Positions 2,728 to 52,126 of a DNA stretch of 64,000 nucleotides are shown piece by piece; position 1 is the stretch's first letter; every line of letters starts with the position of its first letter. The position numbers and the translations under genes were made by a program. The notes under the pieces were generated by a model. It saw nothing but the letters and a program-made list of their open reading frames with translations, searched no databases and was not told where the DNA came from. The DNA is taken from IMG/VR virus record IMGVR_UViG_3300026183_000930, positions 32,001 through 96,000 of that record. One strand, 5' to 3'. The DNA comes from a virus.

Positions 2728-3849
2728 ATGAAATACATTGAGCTAATCACAGAAGCCCCAAATCCTGACAAAGAACAGGCACAGCGAGACTTAGATAGAC
2801 TGAATTATATCAATACCTATCTAAAAAACAATCCTGCTGAGTTGGGTAGATTTCACAAAGCACTTAGACAAAAAGAAAGAGAACAAAAAGTTGCCGCAGG
2901 AGATATGGATGCTGATGATATTTTACCAAAATTAGATCTAAAAAGAACTGATCCAGAAAGAGATCACAAGCCTCTTGTGAAACGTTTCATTGAAGCCATG
3001 GTACAAGCAGATGGTGATGAAGATGACATGATTAACTTTGTTAACACTTATGGCAAAGTCAGTTACATAGACACAGAAAAACTAAGAACTGAAGGTGCAA
3101 GACAAGATATTAAATCATGGTTAGGCGGACGTGGTGAAGTGAGTGATCAATTCATTTACAGTTTGTTTTCTAGTTTGTTTCCAAAAGACTCTTATGGTGG
3201 TCCAGGAGAAACTGCCATGGCATTGTTATCTCCATCAATCACAAGACCAGAAGGCAACAAAGGTGACTTAATTGTTGACAAAGTCAAAGTAGAAGTCAAG
3301 GGTGAAGATGCCAAGGGTGGAGGAAGATTTAAAGATGAAGCCACAAGTATTGGTACTCCTGACATCAAACCAATATATGCCAAAGTGTTAGCCAAACAAC
3401 CAGACATAAAAGTTGACGGACTTGATTTGCCAACATATGACAGAATATCTTCCAGCACAAAAGACAAAGTTATTAAGAACAAGTTTCCATTATTAAATGT
3501 TGCAAGAGCAATTGATCTTGTTGACAACAAACTAGCAGATGACTTTATGAAAGAAATGTTAACAAAAACATTTGTGAAGTCAGCAGAAAACTACAGCAGT
3601 TTGTTTAAGAACTGGAGACAGATGAATCATGCTCAGTTGAATCGTGCCGCAACAAAAATGAGCTATTTGAATTACAAAACAGAATTAGATGCCAAAGGTT
3701 TTGAACACATTCTGTTAATTAACAAACCAAAAGCAGTGTCACTATATTTTAATACAAATGACTTTGATACAGCAAGAGAGCTATTTAAGTTAGGATCAGT
3801 AGACTTCGGTGACAAGCAAAACATGGGCGCCGCCCAAGCATCATTGTAA
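2728..3849 (+). CDS. Hypothetical late protein, possible PD-(D/E)xK-like domain
   Basis: 373-aa ORF, ATAAATA 5 nt before ATG; GPGE...GDL...VEVKG pattern. Confidence 0.55.
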   Translation: MKYIELITEAPNPDKEQAQRDLDRLNYINTYLKNNPAELGRFHKALRQKEREQKVAAGDMDADDILPKLDLKRTDPERDHKPLVKRFIEAMVQADGDEDDMINFVNTYGKVSYIDTEKLRTEGARQDIKSWLGGRGEVSDQFIYSLFSSLFPKDSYGGPGETAMALLSPSITRPEGNKGDLIVDKVKVEVKGEDAKGGGRFKDEATSIGTPDIKPIYAKVLAKQPDIKVDGLDLPTYDRISSSTKDKVIKNKFPLLNVARAIDLVDNKLADDFMKEMLTKTFVKSAENYSSLFKNWRQMNHAQLNRAATKMSYLNYKTELDAKGFEHILLINKPKAVSLYFNTNDFDTARELFKLGSVDFGDKQNMGAAQASL

Positions 3850-3899: not shown

Positions 3900-4634
3900 A
3901 TGAAATTACGAGATTACATTCTAGGTATACCTATCTTTATAATATTGATGTATATCATCATAACCAAAGTGCTATTTGGCAGTTCATTACCAGAATTTCA
4001 AAAAGCAGAAAAGACTTGGTTAACCTTTTCTAGTTACAATCGTACTGATATTGGTAATTTATCATTAATGAATCAAAGAGGATACGGAGTATATCCTGCT
4101 GAACCAATTGTACATTCGTGGGAAATAAAAAACAACAGTAACCAAGAGTTTCACGGCATAGTTAATTTAATTTTAGAAAAGCAAGATAACTCAATAAAAA
4201 TGTATTACACATTTAACAATTTGAGAAACGAAATAAAAATACCTCCAGGGGCAACAGTACGTGTCACATTACTTGGATATCTTAATCCAGAAATTTTATT
4301 AACTGATAAACTTAAAAACTATTACAATAGATCACTATCAATTAGTTTAGTTGTACATGATATAAATGAGTATGATACCTTTTATTGGGACTCTAGAAGT
4401 TATTATTTTGCACATGAACATTATAATACAGAAACAGATGATTACAAATTAGCATCAATTCAATTTATTAATGAAACATGCAGTCAATTAAAAGAAAAAT
4501 ATGCTGTAAGATGGAATATACAACCAAAAATTTGTTACAACAGAAATCAAGATAGTAACGTAAGCAATGTAGATGTTAAAGCAGGATCATCACCTGCAAG
4601 ATCATCACCTGTACCAATGTCAGTTCCTTATTAA
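3900..4634 (+). CDS. Hypothetical protein with N-terminal membrane anchor
   Basis: 244-aa ORF, hydrophobic N-terminus. Confidence 0.6.
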   Translation: MKLRDYILGIPIFIILMYIIITKVLFGSSLPEFQKAEKTWLTFSSYNRTDIGNLSLMNQRGYGVYPAEPIVHSWEIKNNSNQEFHGIVNLILEKQDNSIKMYYTFNNLRNEIKIPPGATVRVTLLGYLNPEILLTDKLKNYYNRSLSISLVVHDINEYDTFYWDSRSYYFAHEHYNTETDDYKLASIQFINETCSQLKEKYAVRWNIQPKICYNRNQDSNVSNVDVKAGSSPARSSPVPMSVPY

Positions 4635-4639
4635 AACAG

Positions 4640-4903
4640 TTAAACTATTTCTTCAACAATACCTAATACTTCTGCTAAGAATAACACTGCACCAGCCAGC
4701 ATCATAAACAATCCTGAATCAGCAATAAAAATATCTGAATACATGTTTGCTGACCACAAGACATAACCTGCCCAGCCTAACAATCCTGATGCTACAAATC
4801 TAAAAATGCTTTTGATTATACTAACTGAAAAATGACCTTTGCCTGGATCTTTTGTTGCGATTTTCATTTTGATTTTATCCATTCTAAGAAATGACTTTAA
4901 CAC
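4640..4903 (-). CDS. Small membrane protein (true start may be a downstream Met, MDKIK or MKIAT)
   Basis: Two hydrophobic helices, ends LGIVEEIV. Confidence 0.6.
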   Translation of the reverse strand: MLKSFLRMDKIKMKIATKDPGKGHFSVSIIKSIFRFVASGLLGWAGYVLWSANMYSDIFIADSGLFMMLAGAVLFLAEVLGIVEEIV

Positions 4904-5122
4904 TACTTGGAAGGCCTTGCTGTGAACTCACCTCCAACTTTCGGATAGCAGATCACATCTATAATTTTGCAAGGTTTAGATATGAAACCTACTTCCAACC
5001 ACCTCCATCTAAACCGAGCCACTTGGCCGCTTAAAAGACTTTAGTGTGCATTACTCCCCTGCCGAAGAGTTATTCTGCCACAAGTGCTAAGAATTAATTA
5101 CTTTCTTAGTTTGTGTTAAAGT
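4894..5122 (-). ncRNA. Putative structured, pseudoknotted ncRNA (~230 nt)
   Basis: Closing 10-bp helix ACUUUAACAC/GUGUUAAAGU, several internal helices, UUGGAAG/CUUCCAA pseudoknot, promoter placed to start at the 5' helix. Confidence 0.65.
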
Positions 5123-5129
5123 TAATAGT

Positions 5130-5158
5130 AATATAACACAAGAGAGTATTCTTGTCAA
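5130..5158 (-). promoter_or_regulatory. Sigma70-type promoter driving the putative ncRNA
   Basis: TTGACA-N17-TATATT with extended TG. Confidence 0.75.
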
Positions 5159-5171
5159 CCTTTTTTTTAAA

Positions 5172-5330
5172 TTATTTTTTAAATGGATTTAAGCCTTTGA
5201 TCTTGTCTGAAACACCTTTTGTGGCCTGTTTAGTTTTGTTGGCCATAGATTTAGTCAAACCTTTTGCTTTGCCTGTGACATCTGGCATTTTAGGCATTTT
5301 GATCTTGGGCATTTTAATTTTATCAAACAT
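5172..5330 (-). CDS. Small basic hypothetical protein (MFDKIKMPKIKMPKMP..., 52 aa; not in ORF track)
   Basis: Translated by hand; AAAGGA RBS upstream. Confidence 0.5.
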   Translation of the reverse strand: MFDKIKMPKIKMPKMPDVTGKAKGLTKSMANKTKQATKGVSDKIKGLNPFKK

Positions 5331-5611
5331 AATAAATTCCTTTATTTGAAGTTGTATTTATTTCAGTTTTTTATCTTTTTGTCGTTGTACCACTTTTTCA
5401 ATTGGGAATAGAACCACATTTTTATACTGTAACAAACTGATTCTCCACTTTAAATACTCAATATATTTCATTGCTTTTTTATTTATAATAGCACTTTTTG
5501 AAGATAAATAAATGGTGACGATATATAATTAAATCAAAGGTTGCAAAAAATTAAAAAATATTATATAATACGATCTGTTTTTAAAAAAATCCAAAGGAAA
5601 GGAATAATAAT

Positions 5612-6547
5612 ATGAAAAAAACAATAGCAATCATCGTGGCGGCAGTCGTGGTAGTATTAGCATGGCTATTTTGGCCATCAAAACCAGCTGAAGCATCTGA
5701 GATTGAAGTTGGCAGTGCCCAAGTGGAATTCTACGGTACTTTGAACTACAAACTCAGCAACGACGAGAATTCAAGTGGTAACACTTATACCAAAGCCGAA
5801 AACAACGGTTCAATTCTAGGAGTGAATGTGTCTGAATCAATCACAGACGGCATTTCTGGTTTTGCTACAGTTGAACTAGGTTTAGATGCTGATGACAGCA
5901 ACAACAATCCATTAGACTCAAGACTGGCTTTTGCTGGTATTGACTTTGGAACAATTGGTGCCATTTCAGCAGGTAGACAAGCATCACCATTCACATCAAA
6001 TGTATCTGGTCACACAGACGTGTTTGAAGTGTACGGTTCAGGTGCAGACCAAAGTTTATTTGTACGTGACACAAACACTATTGCATACAGCAATAAAGTT
6101 GGTGCACTGACATTTGATGGTTTGGTCAAAATAGATGGCTCAACAGGTCAAGACGGTATTGATGTGCAAGAAGGCACAGTGTCAATATCAGAAGGCATGG
6201 TTTCAGCATCAGCAGGTGCTTCAAGAGACAGAGTCAATGATATCAACTATTATGGTGCAGGTGCCACAGTGGATCTAGAAATAGCCACAGTTGGTTACAC
6301 TCACACTATCAAAGATGCGGCAACAGACGTTACTGCCAATGAATACATTGTGTCAAAAACAATTGATGCAACCACATTCACAGGCGGCTACGGCAAAGTT
6401 GAAGATTCAACAGCCTACTACACAGCAGGTGTATCTCACAACTTTAGCGAACAGTTGTCATCATATGTGGAATATCAACAGCAGGACAACACCGGTGCCA
6501 CACTGGACACTGAAAGTTATTCAGCTGGTATCAAGTTCACATTCTAA
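5612..6547 (+). CDS. Gram-negative porin
   Basis: Signal peptide, FYGTLNY, SRLAFAGI, GAISAGRQ, C-terminal YSAGIKFTF; strong RBS. Confidence 0.88.
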   Translation: MKKTIAIIVAAVVVVLAWLFWPSKPAEASEIEVGSAQVEFYGTLNYKLSNDENSSGNTYTKAENNGSILGVNVSESITDGISGFATVELGLDADDSNNNPLDSRLAFAGIDFGTIGAISAGRQASPFTSNVSGHTDVFEVYGSGADQSLFVRDTNTIAYSNKVGALTFDGLVKIDGSTGQDGIDVQEGTVSISEGMVSASAGASRDRVNDINYYGAGATVDLEIATVGYTHTIKDAATDVTANEYIVSKTIDATTFTGGYGKVEDSTAYYTAGVSHNFSEQLSSYVEYQQQDNTGATLDTESYSAGIKFTF

Positions 6548-10751: not shown

Positions 10752-10828
<77 letters not shown>

Positions 10829-11680: not shown

Positions 11681-11756
11681 ATAGTTATAAGCAAACTTTG
11701 TAGAATGCTTATAACTATAATATACTTTGTATTGTGTAAAATGTCAACCTTACTGT

Positions 11757-11951
11757 TTACCAATTATTTGTGGATTTAACAGATTTATGACCTAGTATTT
11801 TGCCTTCATTTTTACCATGTTTTACCAAGTATCCTGAAGTTCCATTACCATTAATATCTACTTCTTTCTTTGCACTGAACATTACCATTGCCTTACGAGC
11901 AAGTGATGAGTTCTTTGCATAGTTTTTGAGTAGATGACTGAATCGTGCCAT
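11757..11951 (-). CDS. Small basic protein downstream of glutamine riboswitch
   Basis: 64 aa, RBS GGGGAGGGTGAT-ATG. Confidence 0.7.
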   Translation of the reverse strand: MARFSHLLKNYAKNSSLARKAMVMFSAKKEVDINGNGTSGYLVKHGKNEGKILGHKSVKSTNNW

Positions 11952-11976
11952 ATCACCCTCCCCGGTTAAAGTTTAG

Positions 11977-12024
11977 GTGCGTTCCTTCGCTTTATGCTAC
12001 TTCCGACCCTAATGGGTTGAACGT
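11977..12024 (-). promoter_or_regulatory. glnA-type glutamine riboswitch (glutamine-I)
   Basis: ACGUUC-A-ACCC-AUUA-GGGU-CGGAAGUA-GC-AUAAA-GC-GAAG-GAACG-CAC fits the three-way junction/E-loop consensus as I recall it. Confidence 0.8.
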
Positions 12025-12075
12025 ATTTGTATTTAGCATACCAGGTATGCAATTTTTTAATACTAGTTTACCCAT

Positions 12076-32000: not shown

Positions 32001-34031
32001 AGCATAGTCTGACCCATTCCATGATAACACAAATCCTGATGTTGGATTTGATTGGTTTAGATGTGAATCAATTGAAGCATTTAATCCTGCTACTGTTTGA
32101 TACGTTCCTAGATCTGAGATCTGTGATTCTGTGATTGTTAAATTTGCTTGGTGTTGTACCACACTTGATGATGTGATGTTCACATCTGGTACATTTGCCC
32201 AAGTAACTGCACTTGATAGATCGTTTGTTTCTGTGAAACTTGTCAAGTAACCAGCAGTTGAGTGATCACCCCAACCAAATGCTGTGTTCCAGTTAGCCGA
32301 ACCTGCCGCTACTATTCTTGCATCTGCTCTTGCATCTGTATAGTATAAATTTGAAGATCCTTCTGGTAATCCATCTGTGTCTGCCAACGCACCCGATTCA
32401 GTTTTCCATTTGAATGAAGTTGAGGCATGATCGTAGTATAAAATTTTTCCGTCATCTCCAGCACCTGCCACTGCATCTACATCTGACAGTGAAGTCAGTG
32501 TTGAACCAGTTAGATCTGTTAGGTAACCTGCTGTTGAATGATCACCCCAACTGTGTGCTGTGTCCCAATTTGTGATCTTGGCACCTGTGATACCAGTTGA
32601 CGTTAATCTTGCATCTATGTCAGTGTTGGCTCTTGCTGTGGTATAATATAAGTTTGTTACACCTTCTGATAAATCATCTGTAGTCTTTGCCGCTATCTTG
32701 GCATCAATGGCCGCATTGGCTCTGGCTTCAGTGTAATATAAGTTTGTGCCTTCTGTTAAATCTGTTGTTGTGTTTGCAGACAAGTCTGTTGATACTGTGC
32801 CTACTACCCAAGCACTACCGTTCCATTTCAAAGCATTGTTTAATGCAACACCTGATGTGTCAACATCAGTTAAATCATTTATACTTGCCGCGGCAATACG
32901 AGCATCTGCTCTTGCATTTGTAAAGTACTGATTAGTACCTTCTGCTAAATCTGTTGTTGTGAAACTTGTTAAATCTGATAGGTATCCTGGATCTGCTACA
33001 AACTCAACTGCACTTGCACCTGCATTAACTTTCACAAAGTAACCGGCCGCACCTGCATAGTTTGTTGGAGTGTCTGTTAATCCCACAAGTGTGGAAGATC
33101 CACCTCCACCGCCGCCGCCAGTCATATTGCCTGGTTCCCATGCTGATGAAACTGAATTATAAATCAGTACCTGACCATTTGCCGCTCCGGCTGAGTTGAC
33201 ATCTGTCAATGCTCCCAAGTTGGTAGCACCTGCATCAACTGTTGATACCCAAGCACTGCCATTGTATTTTAACACATGACCACTTGCAACACCTGTTGTG
33301 TCAACATCTAGTAAATCATTTATTTCATGATCTGAAATACTTGTTACTGTGCCTGCTCTTGTGGCAGTACCATGAAACTCTACTGCGTATACATCTGAAT
33401 ATCTGTTTGAGTTGTCACCAATTGATCTTGTGTTATCAGCATCTGGCAACATATCACCTGATGTAGGTTGATATCTTGCATCTGCTTCTGTTTTTGAATA
33501 TACGCCTAAGTTTGTTCTTGCAGTTGACACATCTGCCACTGCCGCTAAATTATCTGATTTTTGTAAAAATGCTGATGATGACAATCCACCCACTGTGCCT
33601 GCATCAACATTTGCACTGTCAACTGACACTAACACTTCTGTGCCTGATGCTGTCAATGTTATTCCTGTGCCTGCTGTTATACTTTTTAATCTAATGTTAC
33701 CTGTTGTGATATCAACAAATAAGCCTTCGCCACCACCTAGATTTAATCCTGATGTGACTGAGCTTGTAGCCGATATTGTTACATTGTCGGTGTTCTCTGT
33801 GATTGTAACATTGTTGCCAGCAACTAGTGATCTAAACTGTAAATCTGTTCCACTTGCTTGTTTGAATACACCACTACCAGTGCCAACATTTGCTCCACCT
33901 GTGATAGCAGAACCTGAATTAGTTACTGTGGCATTAACAAATGCCTGTTGTGTATCATCATATACTAGTGTTTGATTCGTCGTAGGACTTTGTACGTTAA
34001 AATTTGGGTCTGTGTTTGATCCTATTGCCAT
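29097..34031 (-). CDS. Long tail fibre / repeat-rich virion protein
   Basis: 1644 aa with repeated modules (WGDHSTAGYL, EGTNLYYT, HLNQSNPT..VLSWNGSDYAW). Confidence 0.8.
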   Translation of the reverse strand: MAIGSNTDPNFNVQSPTTNQTLVYDDTQQAFVNATVTNSGSAITGGANVGTGSGVFKQASGTDLQFRSLVAGNNVTITENTDNVTISATSSVTSGLNLGGGEGLFVDITTGNIRLKSITAGTGITLTASGTEVLVSVDSANVDAGTVGGLSSSAFLQKSDNLAAVADVSTARTNLGVYSKTEADARYQPTSGDMLPDADNTRSIGDNSNRYSDVYAVEFHGTATRAGTVTSISDHEINDLLDVDTTGVASGHVLKYNGSAWVSTVDAGATNLGALTDVNSAGAANGQVLIYNSVSSAWEPGNMTGGGGGGGSSTLVGLTDTPTNYAGAAGYFVKVNAGASAVEFVADPGYLSDLTSFTTTDLAEGTNQYFTNARADARIAAASINDLTDVDTSGVALNNALKWNGSAWVVGTVSTDLSANTTTDLTEGTNLYYTEARANAAIDAKIAAKTTDDLSEGVTNLYYTTARANTDIDARLTSTGITGAKITNWDTAHSWGDHSTAGYLTDLTGSTLTSLSDVDAVAGAGDDGKILYYDHASTSFKWKTESGALADTDGLPEGSSNLYYTDARADARIVAAGSANWNTAFGWGDHSTAGYLTSFTETNDLSSAVTWANVPDVNITSSSVVQHQANLTITESQISDLGTYQTVAGLNASIDSHLNQSNPTSGFVLSWNGSDYAWVAQSGSYGDSDVDTHLNQSNPTAGYVLSWNGSDYAWVAQSAGGGGTMSNLVEDTTPQLGGTLDANGNDIDMGTNVITDTKVGQWDTAYSWGDHSTAGYLTSFTETNDLSSAVTWANVPDANITSSSVVQHQANLTITESQISDLQSYLTAETSHADVVVDGDFTSQGIMLRGASAGSYSILTDNSANWNTAFGWGDHASAGYLTSVPAQSFASLTGKPTTLAGYGITDGYTNSDVDAHLNQSNPTAGYVLSWNGSDYAWIDNTGYTSFNTDFDTRLGTKTTTNLTEGTNLYYTDTRVDSRITGNWLIDEDNMVSDSATKIPSQQSVKAYVDSQVATANELGEMTDVTLASLANNQFLKYNSSTSQWENATVTASTAAGSDTQVQFNDGGVMGGDAGFTYNKTTDELTVGSVTTTGASPSVSAAGNLTIETTASSGNISLTPNGTGVVNVNSNIDMGTNVISDAKVGQWDTAYGWGDHGTAGYLTAETNDLSSAVTWANVPDANITQSSVTQHQTALSITESQISDLQSYLTAEADTLATVTGRGATTTTTAVIPFYYANQAAFPNATTYHGAIAHSHSDGAMYFAHGGSWNKMANDSQLTNSTNWDTAYSWGDHSTAGYLTSLTGSGLTTLSDVDAVTGAGDDGKVLYYDHASTSFKWKNAGGGTFGIAGNTGTHTFDTATETLTFLGTTGQINADIAANNVSLSLAADINSITSIAFEGSTADANETKLQAIDPTADRTINLPDADGTVALTTDLYTDSDVDTHLNQSNPTSGFVLSWNGSDYAWVAQSGGSALTVQDEGSSLATAATTLNFVGAGVTASGTGATKTITIAGGGGSAGTEYEEFKINYATNGDISSISDTSSGVSSVSIDSATGGDLTVNFTGYTTPPLSVMFYGYNYPSNEYNMNTLGSTGTTLRKVPGGGSSGSPTAFGSFSSLNIRVSESETGASRSFGTTTHAWVRFVMGA

Positions 34032-44195: not shown

Positions 44196-44224
44196 AATAT
44201 AACATGAATTTGTAAAAAGTCAAG

Positions 44225-52071: not shown

Positions 52072-52126
52072 TTTTCACCTATTTCTTATATATTATACAT
52101 TATTTAGAAAAAATGTCAACTAAAGA

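Follow-up and report, generated by a model that had tools for sequence, protein, structure and literature searches.

A probable manA-like RNA gene with rebuilt P4 and P5 arms in an uncultured marine jumbo phage

The stretch of DNA analysed here, called the window throughout, comprises 64,000 nt (positions 32,001 to 96,000) of the virus record IMGVR_UViG_3300026183_000930, and its minus strand holds a folded RNA of about 230 nt that raises two questions: to which family, if any, does it belong, and is it a gene in its own right or the leader of the gene that follows? An earlier note had described a promoter-driven, pseudoknotted RNA of unknown family that might be an independent noncoding RNA, a ribozyme or a complex leader for a small membrane open reading frame (ORF). 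We find that the locus is probably an autonomous RNA gene of a diverged manA subgroup, encoding a stable, folded and perhaps self-associating RNA, and not a switch for a single gene. The window is part of a 124-kb IMG/VR record with a CheckV completeness of 35%, and the T4-type DNA polymerase of the phage shares 43-50% identity with those of jumbo myoviruses of 346-490 kb; the source is therefore taken to be an uncultured marine jumbo phage.

Promoter, limits and covarying fold

The promoter that had been noted on the minus strand is present, with TTGACA as its -35 box (5158-5153), a 17-nt spacer that carries an upstream TG (5138-5137) and TATATT as its -10 box (5135-5130), and transcription from it is predicted to start near 5123. 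A regular-expression search places a promoter-like site ahead of the RNA in 52 of the 55 homologs in the alignment. Similarity among the homologs starts at the -35 box and ends directly after the 3′ strand of the end-to-end helix P0, with unrelated flanks on both sides, and a covariance model of the RNA, R1, matches the window at 4887-5134 with 294 bits. Two further claims of the earlier note hold: G+C content is raised, at 0.43 for positions 4900-5099 against 0.31-0.35 in the neighbouring 200-nt segments, and no reading frame is conserved, the longest stop-free stretch switching strand and frame across the 28 distinct homologs. The minimum free energy of the RNA stretch is -69.3 kcal/mol (z = -2.75), a value equalled by 2 of 200 shuffles.

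The homologs were collected with sequence patterns. A pattern on the 3′ hairpin gives 5 homologous viral loci among 7 stretches, a looser one yields 35 metagenome stretches, of which 33 are homologous loci and two, L109 and L122, match by chance, and a third, directed at the first arm, adds 35 viral loci, each confirmed by covariance model at E ≤ 2e-48; with the window, the set holds 74 loci and 28 distinct full-length sequences, some contigs, e.g., one of 306,714 bp, being present in both the viral and the metagenome collections. An initial P3 pattern in viral contigs returned 13 stretches, none of them homologous, and these were discarded as chance matches. IMG/VR and JGI/TARA-type metagenome contigs account for every homolog, with one copy of the RNA per record searched, the rest of its own 124-kb record included, where the self match is the only one. 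Two alignments were used: A1 (MAFFT; 24 rows, 23 distinct), which is not fitted to the structure model, and A2, in which 55 of the 74 hits are aligned to the model (28 distinct rows) and which is fitted and so biased toward it; A2 leaves out 12 hits whose RNA is identical to an included one and 7 that are cut by contig ends.

Covariation shows a fold made of the end-to-end helix P0, the hairpin P1 and a four-way junction in which P2 closes P3 to P6. In A1 the ten-helix structure has 97.8% of its cells paired and compensatory changes in 22 of 52 pairs, which none of 500 shuffles match, and controls with slid partners give 40-46% paired and 0-4 compensatory pairs; in A2, 26 of 61 pairs are compensatory compared with 2-5 in slid controls. 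The features are as follows.

5130-5158, minus strand: sigma-70-type promoter, 11 of 12 consensus matches
4894-5123, minus strand: RNA of ~230 nt, running from the predicted transcription start through the last base of P0
5113-5122, minus strand: P0 5′ strand, ACUUUAACAC, pairing with 4894-4903 over 10 bp
4894-4903, minus strand: P0 3′ strand, GUGUUAAAGU, pairing with 5122-5113
5087-5109, minus strand: P1 hairpin, 5109-5103 with 5093-5087; 5 of 7 pairs compensatory
5081-5085, minus strand: P2 5′ strand, ACUUG, pairing with CAAGU at 4905-4909 and closing the four-way junction
5048-5078, minus strand: P3, base 5078-5076 with 5050-5048, tip 5070-5064 with 5059-5053, loop GGCA
5000-5046, minus strand: P4 domain, 5046-5043 with 5003-5000, 5039-5036 with 5010-5007, inner hairpin 5028-5025 with 5020-5017
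4943-4989, minus strand: P5, 4989-4986 with 4946-4943 (weak), 4985-4978 with 4960-4953, 17-nt loop 4977-4961
4910-4935, minus strand: P6, 4935-4930 with 4915-4910, loop of 14 nt, invariant; the helix stacks directly on P2

The 10-bp closing helix of the earlier note is P0, and an equivalent duplex is found in all 28 distinct homologs, where it takes at least 8 different sequences; for any one homolog no more than 2 of 200 shuffles match it. Its CUAAGAA/UUCUUAG helix is P1 and its ACUCUUC/GGGGAGU helix the tip of P3, both of which covary. P2 is 100% paired with 3 of 5 pairs compensatory; P3 carries an internal loop with GAAUA on its 5′ side and AA on its 3′ side, and the pair beside that loop, 64/90, covaries (A-U in 16, G-C in 7); each helix of P4 is 98-100% paired with 2-3 compensatory pairs; and P6 pair 207/228 varies between A-U and G-C. 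Within P5, the inner 8 bp are 99.1% paired with three one-sided changes and one compensatory change, and the outer 4 bp reach 78.2% pairing, both partners having changed in 4 pairs.

The four other helices that had been proposed fare differently: taken together over the 28 distinct sequences they are 87.8% paired, a level reached by 469 of 500 shuffles, with a single compensatory pair. CACUUG pairs not with the CAAGUG of the P4 hairpin but with the 3′-terminal CAAGU, as the 100% paired P2, and in the "GGUUUAGAU" helix the distal AGAU pairs with GUCU and not with AUCU, pair 129/155 being unpaired in 23 of 28 sequences; AGAU/GUCU, in P4, is 100% paired with 3 of 4 pairs compensatory. The UGUGA/UCACA helix is nearly invariant. 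The proposed pseudoknot UUGGAAG/CUUCCAA is not conserved: it has only 79.1% of its cells paired and no compensation, and its 3′ strand, CUUCCAA, is part of the covarying P6 and P2. We also rejected an RNAalifold pairing, GGCAGA/UCUGCU, as 64/90 covaries and 64/190 does not, and set aside the unfiltered list of covarying column pairs, in which clade effects dominate.

Relation to the manA family

That the RNA matches no family is true at Rfam 15 gathering scores, where a scan of the whole window returns only a tRNA and a glutamine riboswitch, both away from the RNA, but it does not hold below them, and the label of unknown family gives way to a weak, in-register match to manA (RF01745, gathering score 55.2 bits). 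In a targeted scan of 4700-5350 this match runs over the full length of the model (1-192) at 21.4 bits and E = 0.0025 in 651 nt, and the three other matches, at E 2.6-6.7, include none on the RNA strand inside the RNA body. The match was obtained by direct cmscan; a record-wide RF01745 search of the RNA's own record, which scored 2 candidates at its first stage, found nothing. On a 306-kb, 87%-complete record the locus of the homolog is the sole RF01745 match (22.9 bits, E = 1e-4), and two further types of the variant, as we call the RNA and its homologs, score 24.4 and 19 bits. Positive controls are a true manA on contig L095, at 60.3 bits, and one in the Pelagibacter phage Mosig, at 64 bits.

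The regions that align are specific. Good alignment to RF01745 is seen for P1, for the helix that closes the junction, for the first arm including its GAAUAA...UAA internal loop and for the last hairpin, but not for the middle, GAAUA(A) and (U)AA of the P3 internal loop being placed with high posterior probability; P1, P2 and P6, each of which covaries in the variant, fall on the corresponding model positions. The reverse comparison with filters off gives true manA as the best match of R1 both in Mosig (29.6 bits, E ~4e-8, next-best match 11 bits) and in G030 (14.6 bits, E ~4e-4, for an RNA with 60.3 Rfam bits), each in register, although these E-values are rough because calibration of R1 was shortened.

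Genomic position points the same way. In L098 the variant comes after a terminator, upstream of which lies a major head gene with 82% identity to the one ahead of true manA in G030/L095, and the same tail-like gene lies downstream of the RNA in both settings. Both true examples, in L095 and in Mosig (L181), carry a TTGACA-17-TATATT promoter and a P0-like end pairing, neither of which is in the Rfam model. From the full-length matches below threshold, the reverse matches of R1, the synteny and the common promoter and end pairing we conclude that the RNA belongs with manA as a diverged type whose P4 and P5 arms have been rebuilt, although by Rfam score it is not a member.

Several results weigh against this assignment and would fit a new family unrelated to manA, whose layout arose by convergence or whose matches below threshold are due to chance. 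Scores of 19-24.4 bits lie far under the 55.2 bits that Rfam requires; of eight variant types scanned, four give no manA match at E ≤ 1 in a search of 44 kb; the central third of the RNA, P4 and P5, does not align to manA; and R1 with default filters misses the true manA of G030/L095 and that of Mosig. We nevertheless regard an unrelated origin as quite improbable, since the matches are reciprocal, in register and full-length and the best one always falls at the right locus, whichever stretch or record is searched. The two RNAs also have in common the P3 internal loop, P0, promoter type and a near-identical P6 5′ strand (UUGGAGGUGA in Mosig and the variant), and behind the related head genes the variant is found in the intergenic slot that true manA fills.

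As a diverged manA-type RNA, the variant combines a retained frame with altered arms. Like manA, it is a marine-phage RNA of ~200 nt, its homologs sharing the marine occurrence of that family, in which a 5′ hairpin is followed by a junction closed by a 5-bp helix, the first arm bears the GAAUAA...UAA-type internal loop and the last hairpin is stacked on the closing helix. Unlike manA, which has a three-hairpin central stem (P4 domain) and a long second-to-last hairpin, the variant has a single-hairpin P4 and a P5 with another stem and a 17-nt loop; GGUGGU, which the manA consensus places in a hairpin loop, forms a strand of a covarying helix in the variant; and the host phages of the variant are jumbo myoviruses. 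The manA family itself is known. The subgroup escapes Rfam 15, blastn (distant mode) finds no match to it among INPHARED phage records, and literature searches on manA RNA in cyanophages and on RNA-only cages gave no description of the subgroup.

Some observations on the true manA loci may be recorded here. The manA of Mosig (MT647606.1), at 2982-3189, is unannotated in this isolated pelagiphage and lies between a hypothetical gene and genes for rubrerythrin and gp32. In L095 a hairpin followed by a U run, resembling a terminator, stands after manA, and the leaders of the tail-like genes (N-terminus MGRPINK) at 12262-12468 of L098 and 1709-1852 of L095 share blocks of similarity.

Neighbouring genes and transcription

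The RNA might still act in cis, as a riboswitch or other leader in the 5′ untranslated region that controls the next gene via a ligand or protein. Such a role was the first one proposed for manA, which Weinberg et al. 2010 (PMC2864571) placed among probable cis-regulators and riboswitch candidates. In the window the gene to be controlled would be the small ORF, which lies outside the conserved RNA module, and a copy of the P1 3′ strand, UUCUUAG, stands at 4890-4884 on the minus strand, one base ahead of its AUG, where it could compete with the P1 3′ strand for the P1 5′ strand; this context is common to three loci only.

4640-4882, minus strand: downstream ORF of 80 aa, membrane-like, AUG 12 nt past P0

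If the RNA served as a leader in general, one would look for a constant partner. Across the 55 loci, however, seven different and unrelated genes follow it.

26 of 55 loci: ORF of 140 aa
17 of 55 loci: gp32-like single-stranded DNA-binding protein (SSB)
3 of 55 loci: ORF of 80 aa
2 of 55 loci: ClpP
1 of 55 loci: tail-like gene
1 of 55 loci: Rv2179c-like exoribonuclease
1 of 55 loci: radical SAM gene
4 of 55 loci: cut by the contig end

A further sigma-70-like promoter (regular expression) intervenes between RNA and next gene in 21 of the 55, and in the clade with the 140-aa ORF an A/T-rich ATAAATA motif, which we take to resemble T4-type late promoters, lies just ahead of that ORF. Conservation stops at P0, with no conserved expression platform beyond it. 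The small ORF, for its part, occurs without the RNA: it has 207 relatives in IMG/VR, blastn with the RNA gives 0 matches on the 80 loci fetched, R1 finds the RNA in 0 of 45 phage records of such relatives, and in two relatives read directly the ORF abuts other genes. The arrangement expected of a leader is nonetheless seen in 30 loci, where an ORF starts 15-33 nt past the RNA with no sigma-70-like promoter found between them by regular expression (26 with the 140-aa ORF, 3 with the 80-aa ORF and 1 with the exoribonuclease).

Transcript data bear on both readings. At least part of the stretch occurs in 19 RNA-labelled runs, of which four were examined, all in the form of contigs; the RNA runs with the variant are labelled salt marsh and estuary. 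In run X10 a 228-nt contig covers 4895-5103 at a depth of 995, more than 100-fold that of the flanking-gene contigs (7.1 and 2.9), although the depth of a contig reflects expression poorly and RNA libraries can contain DNA, and a sequencing adapter abuts position 4895, one base inside the end of P0. The parts left uncovered (4561-4894 in X10 and 5104-5179 in all runs) are uninformative, and in run X1 no contig is placed on the stretch despite a word share of 0.73.

Other features of these data count against a free-standing RNA. The discrete 3′ end comes from one contig of one run, and that contig stops at 5103, inside P1 and short of the predicted start; no terminator is seen after the RNA in the window; and contigs of two runs bridge the RNA 3′ end and the small ORF, namely one in X9, from a ~93% relative, that spans 4690-5054 at a depth of 132 and one in X14 that spans 4717-4937. 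Because of these bridging contigs, in the window's lineage the RNA may also be a 5′ leader, and to this extent the earlier note's suggestion of a leader for the small membrane ORF survives, although it is not general.

On balance we consider a cis-acting leader unlikely as the explanation of the RNA. Its own promoter, paired ends, interchangeable neighbours and apparently high RNA level point instead to a free-standing RNA, which we read as autonomous, abundant and stable, and of the options raised at the outset an independent noncoding RNA fits best, given its conserved promoter, the sharp limits of conservation and the varied downstream genes. The option of a self-cleaving or otherwise catalytic RNA might be thought to gain from the complex junction and from the coincidence of the 3′ end with the end of P0 in the X10 contig. 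The targeted Rfam scan, however, contains no ribozyme family at E ≤ 10, the ends are paired with no internal cleavage, and related manA RNAs are reported, in a recent study, as assemblies and not as catalysts (10.64898/2026.07.01.735769); catalysis is thus hardly credible as an explanation.

Taken as an autonomous gene, the locus would work as follows. Host sigma-70 RNA polymerase would start at ~5123 from the promoter at 5158-5130, and the product would be an RNA of ~230 nt whose ends are paired by P0 and enclose P1 and the four-way junction, with P0, P1, P2, P3 and its purine-rich internal loop, and P6 on P2 presumably retained from manA and P4 and P5 rebuilt. The RNA would accumulate as a stable species trimmed to P0 and would act as a folded RNA itself; where there is no terminator, as in the window, transcription could run on into the next gene.

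The surroundings of the RNA contain further elements of note. In the SSB clade (L102, L121, L126, L104, L111 and L131) a second promoter of TTGACT/TATAAT type follows the RNA, and a conserved leader of ~90-160 nt with a hairpin (UUAGCA...UGCUA) precedes the gp32-like gene, for which it may be an autoregulatory leader. L110 carries a freshwater-2 RNA (RF02980, 65 bits, above cut-off) at 1457-1543 on the plus strand, one gene downstream of the variant, and L150, whose contig also has the most diverged variant RNA, an AdoCbl-II riboswitch (RF01689, 80.7 bits) at 1590-1670 on the minus strand; a tmRNA-like match beside the RNA in L179 (12.2 bits, E = 0.6) was treated as noise. Two genes upstream of the RNA in the window, on the opposite strand, a 311-aa Gram-negative porin is encoded at 5612-6547 on the plus strand (Pfam Porin_4, E = 6.5e-20; Porin_1, E = 6.8e-11), and a related-locus search with the 373-aa neighbour protein returned no relatives. 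The minus strand of the window also holds one tRNA-Arg(TCT) gene (10752-10828) and a glutamine riboswitch aptamer (RF01739, 55.6 bits; 11976-12025) directly upstream of a 64-aa ORF (11757-11951). Promoter-like sites of the form TTGAC-N17-19-TAWAWT number 6 in the window compared with 2.0 expected, a count reached in 3 of 100 shuffles, and include minus-strand sites at 11719-11747, 44196-44223 and 52092-52119.

Candidate loop contacts and self-association

Self-association through loop-loop contacts, as in canonical manA in vitro, is the mode by which such an RNA would most likely act. In the recent study, manA RNAs are reported to form in vitro a 60-subunit icosahedral cage, decamers and octamers, and these are built of pentamers held by intermolecular kissing loops (L5-L7′, L8-L9′ and L3-L8′) and a GNRA-receptor contact (10.64898/2026.07.01.735769). 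Two candidate contacts are found in the variant.

5015-5011 (P4 internal loop) with 4977-4973 (P5 loop), minus strand: candidate long-range contact GGUUU/AAACC, 100% paired
4973-4969 (P5 loop) with 4920-4916 (P6 loop), minus strand: candidate loop-loop contact CUUGC/GCAAG, complementary and nearly invariant

GGUUU/AAACC is itself nearly invariant, with a G-C to A-U change in 2 of 28 sequences (L179 and L150), and it may form within or between molecules. CUUGC/GCAAG, which had been proposed as an internal helix, corresponds by position, we infer, to the L8-L9′ loop pair of manA.

A third signal comes from the P1 loop, 9 nt long, which contains a self-complementary hexamer at 5100-5095. Its palindromic register is kept in 83 of 84 cells (98.8%) while the letters change, the middle pair being U-A in 18 and A-U in 9 and the innermost pair G-C in 2, and the positions are too close together to pair inside one loop. 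In a column test none of 500 shuffles reach the pairing percentage or the covariation score, and slid registers that retain the three pairs give 15-62% pairing. The two true manA examples (L095 and L181) likewise carry palindromic P1 loops. Self-complementary dimerisation loops are present in retroviral genomic RNA, and the likeness is that a palindromic loop core kept while its letters change is the signature of a two-fold loop-loop contact between two copies; the variant loop differs in being A/U-rich, with modest statistics.

These contacts also have evidence against them. The candidate loop contacts, being nearly invariant, give no covariation, and CUUGC/GCAAG shows zero compensation and is lost in L179 and L150. 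Tested singly against shuffles, the P1 loops do not reach significance (p = 0.005-0.83), since chance alone often makes an A/U-rich loop palindromic, and 4 of the 16 distinct hairpins have only 4-nt perfect palindromes; the column test, made in register, is the stronger of the two. We know, moreover, of no manA RNA with an established biological function.

The P1-loop palindrome and the complementary P5 and P6 loops would fit a manA-like assembly, but they are leads only. That the RNA is a protomer of an RNA-only closed assembly, abundant during infection by marine jumbo phages, we put forward as a tentative possibility. It may resemble ROOL, GOLLD and OLE, large RNAs of bacteria and phages that are reported to form RNA-only multimers (10.1101/2024.12.08.627333; also named in 10.64898/2026.07.01.735769), in being a stand-alone, ornate, phage-associated RNA gene with no known partner and with RNA-RNA assembly. 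Those RNAs differ in being several hundred nt long and have no match in the Rfam gathering scan of the window, so that the resemblance is one of kind only.

If the RNA does assemble in this way, the self-complementary P1 loop would be a two-fold contact, the invariant P5-P6 and P4-P5 loops would be ring contacts, and the rebuilt P4 and P5 would give a geometry or stoichiometry unlike that of canonical manA; in that case nature would offer, in this family, a series of RNA cage designs that serve infection, for instance by sequestering or scaffolding some component of host or phage. The manA family, as we place the variant, extends under the Rfam threshold and into jumbo phages, so that current annotation misses members, and the variant, in which peripheral arms are naturally rebuilt and a palindromic loop covaries, provides concrete mutants and contacts for tests of assembly.

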